From: an uncultured archaeon | GTDB taxonomy: Archaea > Asgardarchaeota > Thorarchaeia > Thorarchaeales > Thorarchaeaceae | Assembly: GCA_964558645.1 (NCBI GenBank) | Contig: CAZLEV010000006.1 | Span: 1 to 64,000 of the forward strand | Length of the DNA: 64,000 nucleotides | Reading direction: 5' to 3' | In this document: positions 17,214 through 27,857 of the stretch, piece after piece | Position numbering within the stretch: position 1 is the first letter of the stretch | How the letters are laid out: the number at the start of each line of letters is the position of its first letter | The notes under the pieces: model-generated | What the model was told of the DNA's origin: nothing | Database searches by the model: none | What the model saw: the letters and a program-made list of their open reading frames with translations, nothing else | Made by a program: the position numbers and the translations under genes

Positions 17214-18502
17214 GTCTTCTCAGCGGAGGAAATCTTCACCCCTATGGTTGAGCCCAGTTGCACATCGTCGTCTATGATGACCGGCCTATAGGATGGAGTG
17301 CGAGCCAAGAGACCGCCCTTCGGAGCCACAGAAGTCACAATCACAGGTCCGGTCCACCCAAGCCACGAGTTTGCCTTCTCTAATAGAATAGCGCTCACCA
17401 AACGAGATATTTCCCGGCTCCTGTTCTTCTTCACTGAAGTGTCAACCTTGTCACTGGACTCCGAAGCCGGTGTTCCCGGCCGATCACCATACTTGGATAT
17501 GTTGGTGATCTCCGGCCGCATACTTCTAATCAGATCCATCGTGGCAGCGAAATCGACCTCGGTCTCTCCTGGATGCCCCACGATGATATCCGTGGCGACT
17601 GTAGAACATGGAAATCTCTCACGAATGGCGCGAATAACTGATTCCCACTCGGTAACTGAATACTGTCGATTCATGGCATGAAGGACGTTATCACTGCCTG
17701 ACTGCACAGGCAAATGAAAGAACCTGAAGAAGTGCTGCGACTTCATTACCCTCAGCAATGCACCCAATGAATCGGAGATTAGGTTGCAGTTAAACATCCC
17801 TAGCCTGAAGCGATAATCTCCTGCAATCTCATCAAGCTCCGATAAGAGGTCAACAAGATTCTCACCGGTGTCTGCACCATATGCTGCTGCATCTTGCGCT
17901 GTAAGTCGTATCTCCTTATAACCCGATGTCACTGCTTCGCTTACAACTTCTCTGAGTGAGGAGATAGAGTAACTGCGTATAGATTCTCTTGCGAATCGCA
18001 CTGCGCAATAGCTACAGGCACCCAAGCATCCTTCACAGATGGGAATTGTGCAGATGACACTATGAGGGGGACCTTGGAAGTATCTGAGTTTGGAGCCTGT
18101 ATCTGGTTCTAGGTCAATGATTCCGCGTTCACCCTTGAGAACAGTCTGGAATACAGAACCCAGTTTCTCAATCGATTGAGGGCCCAGTATAGCCGCATGA
18201 TTCGGAGCAGCATCGAGCAGACGTGACAGATTGATCTTGGGAAGACAGCCGGTGATGATGAGAGGAGTACCAGTCTTGTCTAGCTCACCTATGCGATGAA
18301 TAACTCTGTCCTCAGTTGGCTCTTTAACGCCACACGTATTCACAATCAGGACATCGGCAGCATCGAGTTCTTGCACCCTTTCTCCTCCGATGAGAGCGAG
18401 GCGCCCAACAATCAGGTCAGAATCGGCCATGTTCAATGAACAGCCGTAGGTTTCAAGATAATATGCAAGGACCAACAGCCTATCACACTCCACCTTGAAC
18501 AT
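17180..18502 (-). CDS. MiaB-family tRNA methylthiotransferase (archaeal MtaB/CDKAL1 type); true start probably TTG near 18474
   Basis: ETYGCSLN, NTCGVK, TGCL (UPF0004), CLGACSYC radical SAM motif, C-terminal TRAM domain. Confidence 0.9.
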   Translation of the reverse strand: MFKVECDRLLVLAYYLETYGCSLNMADSDLIVGRLALIGGERVQELDAADVLIVNTCGVKEPTEDRVIHRIGELDKTGTPLIITGCLPKINLSRLLDAAPNHAAILGPQSIEKLGSVFQTVLKGERGIIDLEPDTGSKLRYFQGPPHSVICTIPICEGCLGACSYCAVRFARESIRSYSISSLREVVSEAVTSGYKEIRLTAQDAAAYGADTGENLVDLLSELDEIAGDYRFRLGMFNCNLISDSLGALLRVMKSQHFFRFFHLPVQSGSDNVLHAMNRQYSVTEWESVIRAIRERFPCSTVATDIIVGHPGETEVDFAATMDLIRSMRPEITNISKYGDRPGTPASESSDKVDTSVKKNRSREISRLVSAILLEKANSWLGWTGPVIVTSVAPKGGLLARTPSYRPVIIDDDVQLGSTIGVKISSAEKTYLVGDVSVLG

Positions 18503-18770
18503 GGGGCAGAATCGCTATTTCATCGCCCTGTCTGACCGAAGTGTCAAGGCCGTCCAGAAGATCTATGTCATGCCCGTTCAACATGACTATCAGATTGCCG
18601 CTGATAGCACCATTGTTGTTCAATAAGATGTTTTCGAGTTCTAGTCCAAACTTCTTGATTGCCGCTGTGATTATATCATGCACATTAGCAGCGGGCGTAG
18701 CTTCAAGCGAGACTACGGATTGGCCTATGGCTCTCCTGATAGTTCCGAATACCTTCAATCTGATTTTCAA
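18483..18770 (-). CDS. MoaD/ThiS/SAMP ubiquitin-like protein ending in GGV
   Basis: MKIRLKVFG...VMLNG...GDEIAILPHVQGGV. Confidence 0.88.
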   Translation of the reverse strand: MKIRLKVFGTIRRAIGQSVVSLEATPAANVHDIITAAIKKFGLELENILLNNNGAISGNLIVMLNGHDIDLLDGLDTSVRQGDEIAILPHVQGGV

Positions 18771-22658: not shown

Positions 22659-22734
22659 AGCCCCGTGGTGTAGCGGTCCAGCATGGCGGGTTTTGGCCTC
22701 GCCGACCCAGGTTCAAATCCTGGCGGGGCTACCA
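22659..22734 (+). tRNA. tRNA-Gln(TTG)
   Basis: AGCCCCG/CGGGGCT acceptor with A1-U72, anticodon loop TTTTGGC, CCA. Confidence 0.93.
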
Positions 22735-23633
22735 TTCTGTTTTTCCACTTCCGTGATGCTCAATGCATCACCAGTTTCAGGAGCCTGAGCCTTGAAGAGA
22801 CGCTTCACCTTCGAGAGAACCAATCTATCACCGTTGACAAGTATGACGATAGTCACATGCTCAGCAAGCCCTGAAGTGGACAACTTCTTCTCTAGTACAG
22901 CCTGAACCTGGAACACACCTGCGGGATTATCCATGGCTACGGTGATGCGGAGGGGGGCTTCCGTACCCTTCTCAAGAAGGACGTCCTCGATGGCAAGTGC
23001 ACTCACGGAGTGAATATCGACCTTACCCTTCTGATAGGGGATGACGGTCCGACCCTTGGTCATGTCGCATCCATCCCCAATCTTCGTGACTCCCGCCTCA
23101 AAAGTCAGACATTGGGTATCATCATCGTGGGAGTAGATTCCATGTAAAGTAAAGGACAGAATGTCTGTCGCCTTTGCAGGGTCATCGTATATCTCCTCTA
23201 GTTTTGACTCCAAAACAGGTCGTGCTAGCTGGAGAGTCGCCTGTGCATGTTCGTTGCGGTGTACGACCATCCCTATATCGTGCAGATACGTCGCGGCGAG
23301 TACAATCAGTCTTGCATCATCCATGTCACCTATACCTTCAGCAACAACATTTGGTAGGAAGGTCTGAGTCAGGATATCGAACGCTTTCAGTGCATTCCAC
23401 GTGGCAACTTCGGCATGCGTTCTTCCGTGATCTGTATAGCCTAGCCGAGATACGGCCATTCGGTTAGCAGTTCGGAGATAAGATTGCACTTTCGGCGAAC
23501 TGCTCAGATAGCGATACATATCCAGAGATCTCGTTCCCTGCTCTAGGAGATTCTCAACTTCGATGTCTTCTCTCACAAGACTCCTCGTACTATTCATATC
23601 TAACACCAGAGGGACTGAGAACCTCGCTGTCAC
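22713..23633 (-). CDS. HD-domain phosphohydrolase (COG3294-like)
   Basis: LGYTDHG..H, YLHDIG, DIHSVSA; stop codon lies inside tRNA-Gln on the opposite strand. Confidence 0.88.
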   Translation of the reverse strand: MTARFSVPLVLDMNSTRSLVREDIEVENLLEQGTRSLDMYRYLSSSPKVQSYLRTANRMAVSRLGYTDHGRTHAEVATWNALKAFDILTQTFLPNVVAEGIGDMDDARLIVLAATYLHDIGMVVHRNEHAQATLQLARPVLESKLEEIYDDPAKATDILSFTLHGIYSHDDDTQCLTFEAGVTKIGDGCDMTKGRTVIPYQKGKVDIHSVSALAIEDVLLEKGTEAPLRITVAMDNPAGVFQVQAVLEKKLSTSGLAEHVTIVILVNGDRLVLSKVKRLFKAQAPETGDALSITEVEKQNGSPARI

Positions 23634-23667: not shown

Positions 23668-26619
23668 CTAGACCTCTCCTGCTTCCTCCTGCAGCGAGAG
23701 AAGAATCCTATCTGTGGTAGATATTGCCTGTTTGATGGTCTTGAGGTAGTCCTGACGAGACCTCTCGAATGCCGCCCGACTTATTTTCTGCTTCTTTTTC
23801 CGGAGAAGAAGCTGCCGAAGACCAGCTTTGGCACCTGCAATTCTTTCCTCTTGGAGCTCCAGCTGTGAAACAATGTCGCGATACTTTGAGCCTTCAGAAA
23901 TCATCTCTTGCTTAAGGTCTGCTAGCTCGTTATCTACCTCGTCCAATTGTGATTTGATGTCACGCTCTCGAATCATGAATTCTTTCTTGGTCACCTTACC
24001 TCGTTTTCTGGCAGACTCAAGTTTCTCAAGGTCAAGACCAAGGGTTGTCTTCCGGGAGTAGCTGGACGCGAAATCACGTAGGAGCTCAGGTGAAGCACCA
24101 ACCTGCCGACTGGGACTTGTCATCTCATCTTCTCCGGCAACAACTTCTCCGACTGTACGGCGTTTCATACCTCTGTAGGCAACATACATCAGTGCAACAA
24201 CGCCAAAGATGAAACCGAATGCAGTTGGTCGGGCTAGAGTACCAGGCGTTGCCACATATGCAAGAGATATCGCAGGAGGGTTGAACCGAGTCGAATTGTA
24301 GACGGTATATCTAAGAGTTGAATGGGAAGCACCATGAAGTAGTCTATAATCACCAGACGCTTCAGTCACTCCAACAGAAAGGGGCAGGACAATGTCAATT
24401 GTGTGTCTCTCGACATTGATCTCGCTAAGTGTGGTCATGGGAAATTCGACCGTATTGCCTGCACTACCGGACTCCTGATAGCTTGGCAGATGGATGGTGT
24501 AGTGAACATTGAATGTGTATTTGTATCCCGGCCAAAACCCTTGTTCTCCGAACCGGTCCCTCTGGAGGTTTACTCTTTGGTCCATTGTGGCATTCCAGTC
24601 CCAAGTTTTGGGCTGCGAAGCTGCGAGGATGCCTACTCTATCAAATATCTCCACATCCGACATATAGGCGGGGAAGTTCATGGTTACACCCAGCTCTCTT
24701 GCAGGCCCGATATTCTCCAGACTGATTGTTTCTTCGTAATGCAACCAGCCCCAGGGATCCAGGGTTATCCGCGTCGTTCGGGTTGCAACAAGATAGGGTG
24801 TGAACGACCTGATGGTTATGGTGAAAGGTTCTACTGTCATAGGGGCGATGTTTTGCGTACTTCCTTCAATATTCTCACTATCGAGAGAATCACCGCTTCT
24901 GAAGCCGAAGGAGAATGAAAGGGACTGAATCACGTAGGGGACCACTGGATACCTCAGATAGGAGATATCAAACAGGTTGTTCTCAAAGCTCTTTTCCACA
25001 TGAAGTGAGTGGAAATAGGTGACCACTGTGAATGTATAACTCTCTCCAAGATCTACAGGCTCAAAGAAATACACACGCCAGTGCATCATTGTGCTGGTAT
25101 CAGCAAGCCGTTTTACTTCCAGTTGGTGGTTTGCATTGTCTTCGGCCTCAATGGAGAGATAGTTCGCTTTGAATCGGAGAGGGATGTAGAGTTCTAGTGC
25201 ACCGATAGGAACGGATCTTGTGTTCTGCACTGTGAACTTATCAGCGGTCTTGTCTGTGTGATACATCATTGTTGTGAACGTACGAGCCACACTCAACCTC
25301 ATGCCGGCCAGCGGGACAACAGGGTTCCCCACGGTGATATTGATCATCGTGATACTTGTCAGGTTTGATGGATCAGTTGCATTGAAATAGATTGTTTTTA
25401 GACCATCGTCGAAATCAGAAATATCTACTTCTGTCGTCCAAAAGCCGGTCTTGAAGCTGTATCTGAGGGATGTCCAGTTTGTGTCTTCGAAACGATATCC
25501 CGCAGTCCGAATAATAGACTTGTCAGTGGCCTTCAGCTGGACGAACAAGGTCCATTCAACAATCGCATCGGCCGTTGGTGATATCACTTCCAGTTGAGGT
25601 GCGTCATTTGGCTCCATTGCTACCATGAAGGGGGCTGACCAGTCAGTATGCTGAACAGGTAACTCGTCGAAATCATCACTGGGGCCAGCCATCAGAACAA
25701 AAGGATAGACAACATCAGTTCCGTTGAGTAGCGCTATGCCCTCAGCATCTGTGCTGTTCATCCGAATGTGATACTCCAGCTGGGTGGTGGATCCATCATC
25801 GGTAGCATTGGCGGAGATGATTCGACTTTGGTTTGCATAAGGTGTATGTCTTAGTGTACTGATTCCATGTCGATAGCTATATGAGATGGCGCTCGACTCA
25901 GCAGGGTTCTTGAAGTTGTCATCAATTCTGGTCAACGTAATCACATACTCCAAGTCCTCGCCGTAGAGAGGATGATCTGGAGATGTGTAGCCCTCCTCAG
26001 CAGGTATGATGAAATGCCTTGTCTCGCCGATTCTCATGCCATATATCTGCTCTTTGTATGCCTCAAGAAGCCCCTCATTCTGAATCTCTGTAACGGAGTC
26101 ATTACCAGGAACATATCCTTCCTGTTCAACAGTTCCGTTTCTGAAAGACAGTACGTAATGGACTGTGACCGAATCGGTCGGCTGGACGCGTTGCACTGGT
26201 TCGTATGCACCGGCTGGTGAGGACCCAATGATGACATCGCTGTTGTTCAGACCATCCAACGTATAGGTTCCATTAACATCTTTCCAGCTTAGACCAATCC
26301 ATCCAGTTGTCTGTGCTTTCAAACCAACGTACATGACAGTGGAGTTATGTTCGAGATAGACGGTGATGCCAGTGGACGGGTCAGTATAGTTGAATGAGTA
26401 TTCATATGGATCAACAATGCCATCTGCAAGCCCATAATGCTTGTCAACGTAGGGAATAGATAGGTTGCATACTGTCTGAGCAATTGAGTTGTCAGATTCA
26501 TACGCGTTCACATCTGTGATCTCCAGACTAATGGAGTCAGATAGGCCCACCAAAGCACTGCTCGCAGCGAAAAGCACCAAGAGGGCGATTGTTGTAATCC
26601 GTCTATTCAGATGTTTCAA
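23668..26619 (-). CDS. Ribophorin I (OST1)-like protein fused to DOMON, FKBP and Ig-like domains
   Basis: Signal peptide; GWIGLSW/DVIIG (DOMON); VTVHY...GMRIGETRHFIIPAEEGY (FKBP); RITLDPWGWLHYEETISLEN (ribophorin I); TM helix; cytoplasmic coiled coil. Confidence 0.72.
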   Translation of the reverse strand: MKHLNRRITTIALLVLFAASSALVGLSDSISLEITDVNAYESDNSIAQTVCNLSIPYVDKHYGLADGIVDPYEYSFNYTDPSTGITVYLEHNSTVMYVGLKAQTTGWIGLSWKDVNGTYTLDGLNNSDVIIGSSPAGAYEPVQRVQPTDSVTVHYVLSFRNGTVEQEGYVPGNDSVTEIQNEGLLEAYKEQIYGMRIGETRHFIIPAEEGYTSPDHPLYGEDLEYVITLTRIDDNFKNPAESSAISYSYRHGISTLRHTPYANQSRIISANATDDGSTTQLEYHIRMNSTDAEGIALLNGTDVVYPFVLMAGPSDDFDELPVQHTDWSAPFMVAMEPNDAPQLEVISPTADAIVEWTLFVQLKATDKSIIRTAGYRFEDTNWTSLRYSFKTGFWTTEVDISDFDDGLKTIYFNATDPSNLTSITMINITVGNPVVPLAGMRLSVARTFTTMMYHTDKTADKFTVQNTRSVPIGALELYIPLRFKANYLSIEAEDNANHQLEVKRLADTSTMMHWRVYFFEPVDLGESYTFTVVTYFHSLHVEKSFENNLFDISYLRYPVVPYVIQSLSFSFGFRSGDSLDSENIEGSTQNIAPMTVEPFTITIRSFTPYLVATRTTRITLDPWGWLHYEETISLENIGPARELGVTMNFPAYMSDVEIFDRVGILAASQPKTWDWNATMDQRVNLQRDRFGEQGFWPGYKYTFNVHYTIHLPSYQESGSAGNTVEFPMTTLSEINVERHTIDIVLPLSVGVTEASGDYRLLHGASHSTLRYTVYNSTRFNPPAISLAYVATPGTLARPTAFGFIFGVVALMYVAYRGMKRRTVGEVVAGEDEMTSPSRQVGASPELLRDFASSYSRKTTLGLDLEKLESARKRGKVTKKEFMIRERDIKSQLDEVDNELADLKQEMISEGSKYRDIVSQLELQEERIAGAKAGLRQLLLRKKKQKISRAAFERSRQDYLKTIKQAISTTDRILLSLQEEAGEV

Positions 26620-26828: not shown

Positions 26829-27857
26829 ATGCTTGGCGTGATTCTATCGATTCTGCTCTCGTTTGTGCTGTCAGTCTCCATTCTGCCTGGCACCATACGC
26901 CTGCTTCAAGAGAGGGGAAAGGTTGGTGTGGATGTCCACAAACATGCCAAACCAGAAATCCCGAAAGGGGCAGGTTTTGTGCTTCTCTTCGCAGTAGTCA
27001 CGACGCTTCTGACCTATGTTGGAGTAACAACGTTCACCTCAGATGAGGTGAATAGGGGCATTCTTGCAGCACTGGTGTCGATACTGATGGCAGGCATGGT
27101 TGGGAAGCTGGATGACGATCTTGACTTCAAGAATCGCACAAAGATCATACTGCCTCTTATAGCTTCCATTCCCATGATTGCTATGCAGATAGGTACCAGT
27201 ACAATGGATATACCCTTCATCGGCACAGTCAACCTTGGTGTATTGTATCCCTTGATAGTAGTACCCCTGATGATGACATTCATTATAGATTCCACAAACA
27301 TGTATGGGGGAATGAATGGTCTAGAAACAGGCCTTGCTAGCATAAACGCATCTGCAGTAGTCATGTTTGTCATGATTTCTTCTCTTGTTTCAGGCCAGGG
27401 AATCCCGGAGAACCTGATGGCCTCAGGGGTGCTTACTGGAGCTCTATTGGGTGCCTCTCTTGCCTTCTTCATTTTCAATAGATATCCAGCAAAGACGATT
27501 CCTGGAGATGTGGGCAGGCTGCCACTGGGAGCCGCCATGGGGGCTGCACTCATACTTGGCCACCTGAATCGCCTAGCAGTATTTTTGTACCTGACATACG
27601 GTGTGAACTTTCTCCTGTATCTCTTCTATCGACTGGATGCACGAAGGGATGGCAAAGAATGCGTGAAGTTTGCAGAACCCACTGAGGATGGGACGCTCGA
27701 GGTTGCTGGGCCGTATACTATGTACTGGTTGTTACCCCACTTCTTTGACGGTATCACAGAGCAGAAGAATGTGCGAATACTCTTGCTAATGCAAGCCATC
27801 ATAGCATATGGGGCAGTTCTATTCCTCCTCTTCGGTCCACCATTGACAATTTGGTGA
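26829..27857 (+). CDS. UDP-GlcNAc:polyprenyl-phosphate GlcNAc-1-P transferase (MraY/Alg7/AglH family)
   Basis: GVDVHK..KPEIP, GKLDD, NMYGGMNGLE, FNRYPAK..PGD. Confidence 0.88.
   Translation: MLGVILSILLSFVLSVSILPGTIRLLQERGKVGVDVHKHAKPEIPKGAGFVLLFAVVTTLLTYVGVTTFTSDEVNRGILAALVSILMAGMVGKLDDDLDFKNRTKIILPLIASIPMIAMQIGTSTMDIPFIGTVNLGVLYPLIVVPLMMTFIIDSTNMYGGMNGLETGLASINASAVVMFVMISSLVSGQGIPENLMASGVLTGALLGASLAFFIFNRYPAKTIPGDVGRLPLGAAMGAALILGHLNRLAVFLYLTYGVNFLLYLFYRLDARRDGKECVKFAEPTEDGTLEVAGPYTMYWLLPHFFDGITEQKNVRILLLMQAIIAYGAVLFLLFGPPLTIW

Follow-up and report, generated by a model that had tools for sequence, protein, structure and literature searches.

Can a folding catalyst be part of the oligosaccharyltransferase (OST) itself? 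The question was raised by one gene in the window, that is, the 64,000-nucleotide stretch analyzed here (contig CAZLEV010000006.1, assembly GCA_964558645.1) from an uncultured archaeon of the order Thorarchaeales. The initial annotation, made from the letters alone, described this gene as a ribophorin I homologue fused to a DOMON domain that is interrupted by an FKBP prolyl isomerase. The gene was a single open reading frame (ORF) of 983 amino acids (aa) with a TTG start, zero internal stops and ordinary GC content, and its product was an orthologue of OST1/ribophorin I. We lean, with confidence somewhat better than even, toward a foldase arm on the translocon: the OST1 of a ribosome–Sec–OST translocon would be extended outside by an FKBP that binds, and probably isomerizes, emerging chains. 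Asgard OST1 was already known; a foldase fused to OST1 was not in the papers searched. No description of the fusion was found in the literature on Asgard or Thorarchaeota ribophorin, FKBP, DOMON and prolyl isomerase, most subscription journals lying outside this search.

Architecture of the Fusion Gene

The features of the gene, with the evidence for each, were as follows.

23668..26619, minus strand: whole DOMON::FKBP-Ig-ribophorin I (OST1) fusion gene (Ig, immunoglobulin-like); ORF, with full-length orthologues in 25 related genomes
26524..26619, minus strand: predicted signal peptide or N-terminal hydrophobic segment, aa 1–32; hydropathy (aa 6–32) and a helix (2–26) in the model
26212..26466, minus strand: DOMON N-half, aa 52–136, with invariant acidic motif D66, D70, E73, D80 and Leu124 at the heme-Met position; profile comparison, structure match and orthologue counts
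25918..26193, minus strand: inserted FKBP, SlyD-type without insert-in-flap (IF) domain, aa 143–234; PF00254 at E 1.3e-9 and Z 12.6 to 3CGM
25606..25908, minus strand: DOMON C-half, aa 238–338, with H258, E282 and H324; profile comparison, structure match and orthologue counts
25324..25605, minus strand: Ig-like spacer (Big_7-like), aa 339–432; PF17957 in 32/50 orthologues and all-beta in the model
24247..25308, minus strand: two ribophorin I luminal beta-sandwich domains, aa 438–791; Foldseek matches to OST chains and PF04597 in 32/52 aligned relatives
24154..24246, minus strand: single transmembrane (TM) helix, aa 792–822; model and hydropathy
23677..24096, minus strand: cytosolic four-helix bundle (OST1 ribosome-binding domain), aa 842–981; 8WHN at E 1e-6 and four helices in the model

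The order proposed in the initial annotation was borne out: a predicted signal, the DOMON N-half, FKBP, the DOMON C-half, the Ig domain, the ribophorin part, the TM helix and a cytosolic part. The ribophorin-I-like luminal region that it named was present, as matches to OST chains indicated, but it comprised two beta domains and not one. Hydropathy gave two hydrophobic segments (aa 6–32 and 795–813), and all 17 N-x-S/T sequons lay between them, which indicated that the N-terminal 790 residues face outward. A predicted signal, luminal domains and one TM helix correspond, by hydropathy, to type I membrane topology, and the N-termini of the orthologues were of the same kind. Among 50 orthologues, Pfam detected FKBP_C in 47, Big_7 in 32, Ribophorin_I in 10 and DOMON in 6. 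The whole-chain AlphaFold2 model had a predicted local distance difference test score (pLDDT) of 82 and a predicted template modeling score (pTM) of 0.45; for aa 50–340 modeled separately, the values were 94.6 and 0.89, with pLDDT 95 in the FKBP part. An assembly chimera was ruled out by full-length orthologues in 25/25 sampled genomes of the order and in more than 120 database clusters.

Identity of the Ribophorin I Part

When the whole-chain model was searched with Foldseek, eight human and yeast OST chains, all of RPN1/Ost1 size, ranked first (E 2.8e-27 to 4.4e-18), and the next match followed at 3.6e-12. PF04597 was matched by 10/50 orthologues (best E 6.5e-8, some above the cut-off), and together these results supported the ribophorin I assignment of aa ~440–820. 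The query sequence alone gave no Pfam match to PF04597, and Pfam family searches with PF04597 and with PF03351 both missed the fusion gene. A profile of 52 relatives, of which 32 carried PF04597 and which included the query itself, matched the query at E 8e-154.

The region labeled earlier as a cytoplasmic coiled coil proved to be the OST1 four-helix bundle. Residues 846–976 matched the cytosolic domain of MK-D1 OST1 (8WHN, E 1e-6), a domain that binds ribosomes in pull-downs (PMC11417166), and the model placed four helices in aa 844–980. The bundle contained 30 Lys/Arg in 142 aa and was the most conserved part of the protein (conservation 0.82).

A search of the genome returned the fusion as its only ribophorin, with no second, unfused copy; the putative OST partners encoded there were one intact STT3 and one TM-only OST3/6. 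Asgard ribophorins are easily overlooked in standard searches, as illustrated by the query's own Pfam miss and by the conflict in the literature on MK-D1, which is said to be without Ost1 in one paper (PMC11284389), whereas another solved the cytosolic domain of its Ost1 (PMC11417166).

Domain Insertion and Distribution

Compared with profiles of uninterrupted DOMONs, the two halves matched at 99.8% with one gap of ~110 residues at the FKBP position, and at 99.95% after excision of the FKBP. The model of aa 50–340 matched ethylbenzene dehydrogenase gamma (2IVF_C) across both halves (Z 15.9, root-mean-square deviation (rmsd) 2.7, 166 residues aligned). The DOMON of DBH (Z 13.5), the CDH cytochrome (12.8) and CBM9 (12.5) followed, and the Atlas also pointed to a DOMON fold (TM score 0.53 to a PF03351 cluster). 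Since the profile gap fell at the FKBP and the structural match covered both flanks, the insertion is real, and the split DOMON of the initial annotation was confirmed. The FKBP was complete, as that annotation had stated for ~aa 143–233: PF00254 covered aa 144–228 (E 1.3e-9, model positions 4–92 of 94, 38.7 bits against a cut-off of 21.1), and in structure comparison aa 143–234 aligned with SlyD (3CGM; Z 12.6, rmsd 1.9, 84 residues).

The full-length fusion was found in 24/24 genomes of the family and in the one sister-family genome sampled, at identities of 33–93%. In a set of 400 Asgard genomes, the module, whole or as pieces on short contigs, occurred in 81/85 other genomes of the family and in 1/1 of the sister family, thus in 82/86 of the order. 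Elsewhere it occurred in 0/313: none of the matches listed there went beyond a single FKBP or one half of the DOMON, and their E-values were 1e-18 or weaker. Ribophorin I itself was found in 375/400 of these genomes, and nearly all genomes of the order had a single match. Among the matches listed, OST1 frames outside the order were ~565–710 aa long, and no unfused ribophorin was found in the genomes of the order that were searched. Natural fission was considered and rejected, as the split-looking cases checked (G338 and G340) were contig ends. Genome G025 had a second ribophorin match that was weak and partial (E 1.5e-12). Genome G341, a single contig that is 86% complete, had no OST1 match and carried the C-terminal tail of STT3 (see below) in a short frame; many frameshifts in the assembly may account for this, or the loss may be genuine.

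The FKBP Pocket and the Proposed Foldase Arm

The pocket of the inserted FKBP was SlyD-type and largely intact. Across 125 orthologues, Y155 was kept in 125, L157 in 121, L185 in 122, Y188 in 123, Y211 in 123 (Phe in the other 2), L223 in 125, Y/F225 in 125 and H216 in 94; all but H216 were 94–100% conserved. Their equivalents in TtSlyD are Y13, L15, I37, L40, Y63, L126, F128 and H119, respectively, where the C-terminal register came from the ungapped 3CGM match and the N-terminal one from an FKBP2 alignment and spacing. The set agreed with the pocket residues of FKBP12 (Y26, I56, W59, Y82, and F99) and of TtSlyD. The IF chaperone domain was absent, the flap being a short loop (aa 211–219), and matches to SlpA and MtFKBP fell in two pieces on either side of their IF domain. 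Mean conservation was 0.68 in the FKBP vs. 0.56–0.59 in the Ig and ribophorin luminal domains. None of the genome's other peptidyl-prolyl isomerases (PPIases), a long FKBP, a parvulin and a cyclophilin, had a hydrophobic segment, so that the inserted FKBP was the only exported PPIase fold of the genome.

In the FKBP tree (96 columns), 20 Thorarchaeota domains grouped (99/98) among membrane-anchored Asgard FKBPs; the sister-family member stood outside this group on a long branch of its own, and the tree named no donor. In the sister-family fusion (P0126/L026), FDTS is retained in its canonical form, and an additional loop resembles one in the cytosolic FKBPs of archaea. Judging from this form, the insert may originally have been a canonical FKBP, or it may have been replaced.

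We propose that the cytosolic bundle would dock the ribosome, as shown for the MK-D1 orthologue, and that the TM helix and luminal domains would hold OST1 to STT3/AglB as in the eukaryotic OST, making the fusion a putative member of that complex. The Ig spacer would carry the heme-less, probably metal-stabilized DOMON sandwich, which would present the FKBP. Its likely substrates would be chains leaving the channel, whose Xaa-Pro and hydrophobic stretches would enter the pocket, and the domain would probably catalyze their cis–trans isomerization. Human FKBP11 likewise sits at the OST-A translocon (PMC12804085). Folding help and N-glycosylation would take place at one site, coupled in space and time with no shared reaction. 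The initial annotation had gone further and coupled proline isomerization to N-glycosylation. Its premise, an FKBP fold tethered to an OST1 orthologue, held, given a genuine fusion that is found across the order, an outward-facing FKBP and the retention of most pocket residues; tethering gives the FKBP proximity to the OST, from which no mechanistic coupling of isomerization to glycan transfer follows.

Several points weigh against an active foldase arm. In the alignment with FKBP2, the D37 position (D23 of TtSlyD) is Q166 in the query, and in the 125 orthologues it is Gln in 91, Glu in 29, Asp in 4 and Ala in 1. The F36 position, hydrophobic in 117/125, is Glu165 in the query, with Glu there in only 2/125, and the query is thus among the odder members of its family. 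The full-length model, at pTM 0.45, leaves the domain orientations unfixed. In a few genomes the DOMON::FKBP-Ig module sits on a plain membrane anchor, and the OST is therefore not required. Finally, the catalytic site of human FKBP11 is buried by CCDC134, and it was argued that the protein is not an isomerase there (PMC12804085).

A degenerate FKBP, as the altered D37 and F36 positions might imply, was weakened by the conserved L157 and by the activities of TtSlyD mutants. TtSlyD keeps 78% of its activity as D23A, 21% as Y63A, 35% as F128A and 58% in an IF-less form, Y63A and F128A being among the most damaging changes (PMC5034536). Judged by D23A, the Asp is not essential in TtSlyD. Given these mutant data and the conserved pocket residues, isomerase activity of the inserted FKBP is on balance the probable prediction.

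The main rival arises from FKBP11, which is possibly an adaptor with a buried site. Here the FKBP would be a non-catalytic adaptor or holdase whose pocket grips a fixed partner (an OST or TRAP subunit, the STT3 tail or a special client) and regulates access to STT3. The loss of Asp in 121/125 orthologues fits this proposal, as does the canonical FDTS of the sister-family member, which indicates that it was the main family that changed the motif; FKBP11 gripping CCDC134 (PMC12804085) provides a precedent, and the STT3 of the same order acquired a DOMON-like tail of its own. However, the observed substitutions are tolerated in SlyD-type enzymes, and E. coli SlpA, called catalytically active (PMC5034536), aligns a Glu near the D37 position. 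The near-invariant hydrophobic pocket is compatible with either proposal. We regard the adaptor as unlikely, though worth taking seriously.

The DOMON of OST1 and the DOMON-Like Tail of STT3

Heme-binding DOMONs use Met and His as axial ligands (PMC10691727). The initial annotation had the Met replaced by Leu while the His remained, and took this as a possible sign of sugar rather than heme binding. The first part was correct: in 125 orthologues, the heme-Met position (L124) was Leu in 111, Ile in 12, Val in 1, Phe in 1 and Met in 0. The His (H324) was kept in only 102/125, with Arg in 18, and H258 and H324 were both present in 94/125. Judged from these residues, Met/His heme binding by the OST1 DOMON is unlikely. 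The Met loss did not point to sugar, since the DOMON of DBH, which has no heme ligands, does not bind heme and does not bind sugar either (PMC4846438, PMC10691727). The ligand-side positions were Leu and His/Arg, not the Trp pair of CBM9; W107, W112, and W327 were conserved, and any of them might line the pocket. The acids D66, D70, E73, D80, and E282 were invariant, which suggests a putative structural metal site.

The single STT3/AglB of the genome (G000:C6:141563-144325, equivalent to L036:67-2832, minus strand; 921 aa) lies outside the window. Its motifs WWDYG and DEGKWPWM are both familiar from Loki- and Thorarchaeia, and the last 170 aa form a C-terminal tail. As a profile, this tail matched free DOMONs at 96.8% (E 2.9e-10; maximum of 4.3% in 20 column shuffles) and the OST1 DOMON at 92%, and profile–profile comparison was the sole source of this likeness. 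A narrow hidden Markov model of the OST1 DOMON missed the tail, Pfam gave it nothing significant, and its Atlas features pointed to EB_dh and CBM9 clusters (0.87–0.88), which is a lead only. The tail has neither the Met nor the His heme ligand; it was present in 80/85 and 1/1 genomes of the order, and elsewhere weak matches lay in separate proteins. By sequence, then, OST1 and STT3 each acquired a heme-less DOMON-like domain, but within a single lineage, so that the two do not count as independent cases. When the luminal part of STT3 (aa 520–921) and the DOMON::FKBP module were predicted as a complex, the score was 0.00, a value that says nothing about binding in either direction. An OST3/OST6 homologue (G000:C6:148143-148559, minus strand), ~4 kb away from STT3, consisted of TM helices only, with no thioredoxin domain.

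Two further proposals give these domains a sensory role. One is a hard-wired co-translocational quality-control station, in which an active isomerase on OST1 would be combined with the DOMONs of OST1 and STT3 as glycan or substrate sensors, an independent parallel to the FKBP11 and malectin recruited in the animal endoplasmic reticulum (ER); we consider it improbable. The other, glycan-sensing quality control, would make both DOMONs CBM9-like lectins that hold fresh glycoproteins near the FKBP, with the malectin of animal ribophorin I as a precedent. The fold is common to CBM9 (Z 12.5), the heme Met was lost in both OST-linked DOMONs and kept in 8/9 free ones, and two subunits of one machine bear such a domain in one order. 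Yet the ligand positions are not aromatic, the DBH domain that binds neither ligand outscores CBM9, no lectin family was matched in Pfam-type scans of the orthologues and the STT3 tail, and co-distribution within one clade counts as one event rather than many. Such lectins are quite improbable.

Stand-Alone Relatives and Gene Neighbors

The plain-anchored copies were signal-DOMON::FKBP-Ig-Ig-TM paralogues in a few Thorarchaeota (L031:4130-5890 and L032:4534-6321, both plus strand; P0127 and P0132), in which the ligand positions of both the FKBP and the DOMON have drifted further. In L031, the copy follows phytoene-desaturase-like and prenyltransferase-like genes. With such paralogues, with free anchored FKBPs in other Asgard groups and with an Ig linkage that is flexible in the model, the fusion could be a passenger: a general surface foldase that acts on mature surface proteins, independently of translocation and glycosylation, and uses ribophorin I merely as an anchor and co-expression unit. 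However, ribophorin was never found unfused in the genomes searched, the apparent splits that were checked were contig ends, and the paralogues are rare, additional copies nested within the fusion's FKBP clade in the tree; this proposal is very improbable. Hardly credible is a redox module whose DOMON would bind heme via H258 and H324 and feed oxidative folding at the translocon. In its favor, the top structural matches of the domain are heme-binding DOMONs, both His occur in 94/125 and the OST3/6 has no thioredoxin domain. Against it, Met is absent in 125/125, a quarter are without one His, H258 is also kept in free Met-bearing DOMONs and hence is not a new ligand, and the module has no Cys.

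Free signal-FKBP-TM proteins and free signal-DOMON-TM proteins occur in other Asgard groups and were likely the stock of parts for the fusion. The former were seen in other Asgard families (L035:3498-4136, L099, L100, L111, and L113) with the topology of human FKBP11, and several end in a cytosolic Cys-rich (zinc-finger-like) tail.

The fusion gene was flanked by the following genes.

26829..27857, plus strand: divergent neighbor, glycosyltransferase family 4 (GT4; DPAGT1/Alg7/AglH-like); PF00953 at E 5.5e-25, far below MraY cut-offs
22713..23633, minus strand: HD-domain gene, downstream and co-oriented; PF01966 at E 0.0016, in 25/25 fusion loci reaching that far

The GT4 gene, which would encode the first step of lipid-linked glycan assembly (the DPAGT1/AglH step), stood head-to-head with the fusion in 25/25 loci showing that flank. 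The HD, Trm112 and topoisomerase VI neighbors were conserved as well as GT4, and synteny alone is therefore weak evidence for a functional link. Scanning the 209 bp between the two divergent genes for sigma-70 promoters gave nothing, and the sigma-70 model is not applicable to archaea. Elsewhere in the window, 18483–18770 (minus strand) encoded a SAMP/ubiquitin-like protein ending in GG-V; the run of genes to which it belongs also includes glycine-cleavage P genes, a PAC-like gene and a gene for a MiaB-like methylthiotransferase.

Comparison with Known Systems

A gene fusion retained across an order argues, on natural evidence, for a proline-binding foldase at the point where chains leave a glycosylating translocon. 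That role was argued for human FKBP11, whose site is buried in the sole available structure. The soluble 290-aa module of the fusion was modeled with high confidence and presents the question in a minimal form. Asgard lineages elaborated the OST independently from exported modules (FKBP, DOMON, and Ig); the fusion, confined as it is to one order, parallels the eukaryotic ER and is not ancestral to it.

The OST1 of MK-D1 ('Ca. Prometheoarchaeum syntrophicum'; WP_147663064.1; 8WHN; PMC11417166) shares the signal peptide, luminal beta domains, one TM helix and cytosolic four-helix bundle. It has 607 aa and no N-terminal arm, whereas the Thorarchaeota protein adds ~385 aa (DOMON::FKBP and Ig). Human RPN1 and yeast Ost1 (8B6L_O, 6S7O_E, 6EZN_A, and 7OCI_A) are alike in their luminal, TM and cytosolic folds at 13–15% identity. 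They have no fused foldase or DOMON; FKBP11, CCDC134 and malectin are separate, recruited helpers.

The inserted FKBP shares its fold and the Y-x-L, GY, H-x-L and L-x-F/Y pocket pattern with SlyD, SlpA and archaeal short FKBPs (3CGM, 4DT4, and 1IX5). It differs in being without an IF domain, in having Gln/Glu in place of Asp, and in being exported and itself the insert. The beta-sandwich is common to the DOMON-like superfamily (2IVF_C, DBH 4ZEL, CDH cytochrome 1D7C, and CBM9-2 1I82; Z 12.5–15.9), from which the OST1 DOMON departs by its interruption, by the missing heme Met and by having no Trp at the ligand positions. Its nearest relatives by sequence are free prokaryotic signal-DOMON-TM proteins, some of them from other Asgard groups; most of these free proteins have retained Met and His.

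A comparable protein in human cells is FKBP11, which has a luminal FKBP domain beside STT3 and the ribosome in the OST-A secretory translocon (PMC12804085; 9N9J/9YGY) and is engaged during synthesis of long translocated segments. FKBP11 is a separate, dynamically recruited, FKBP12-type protein with its site buried by CCDC134, whereas the FKBP of the fusion is of the SlyD type and is covalently part of the OST1 chain. The fusion is best read as convergent with human FKBP11, and the likeness as an analogy.

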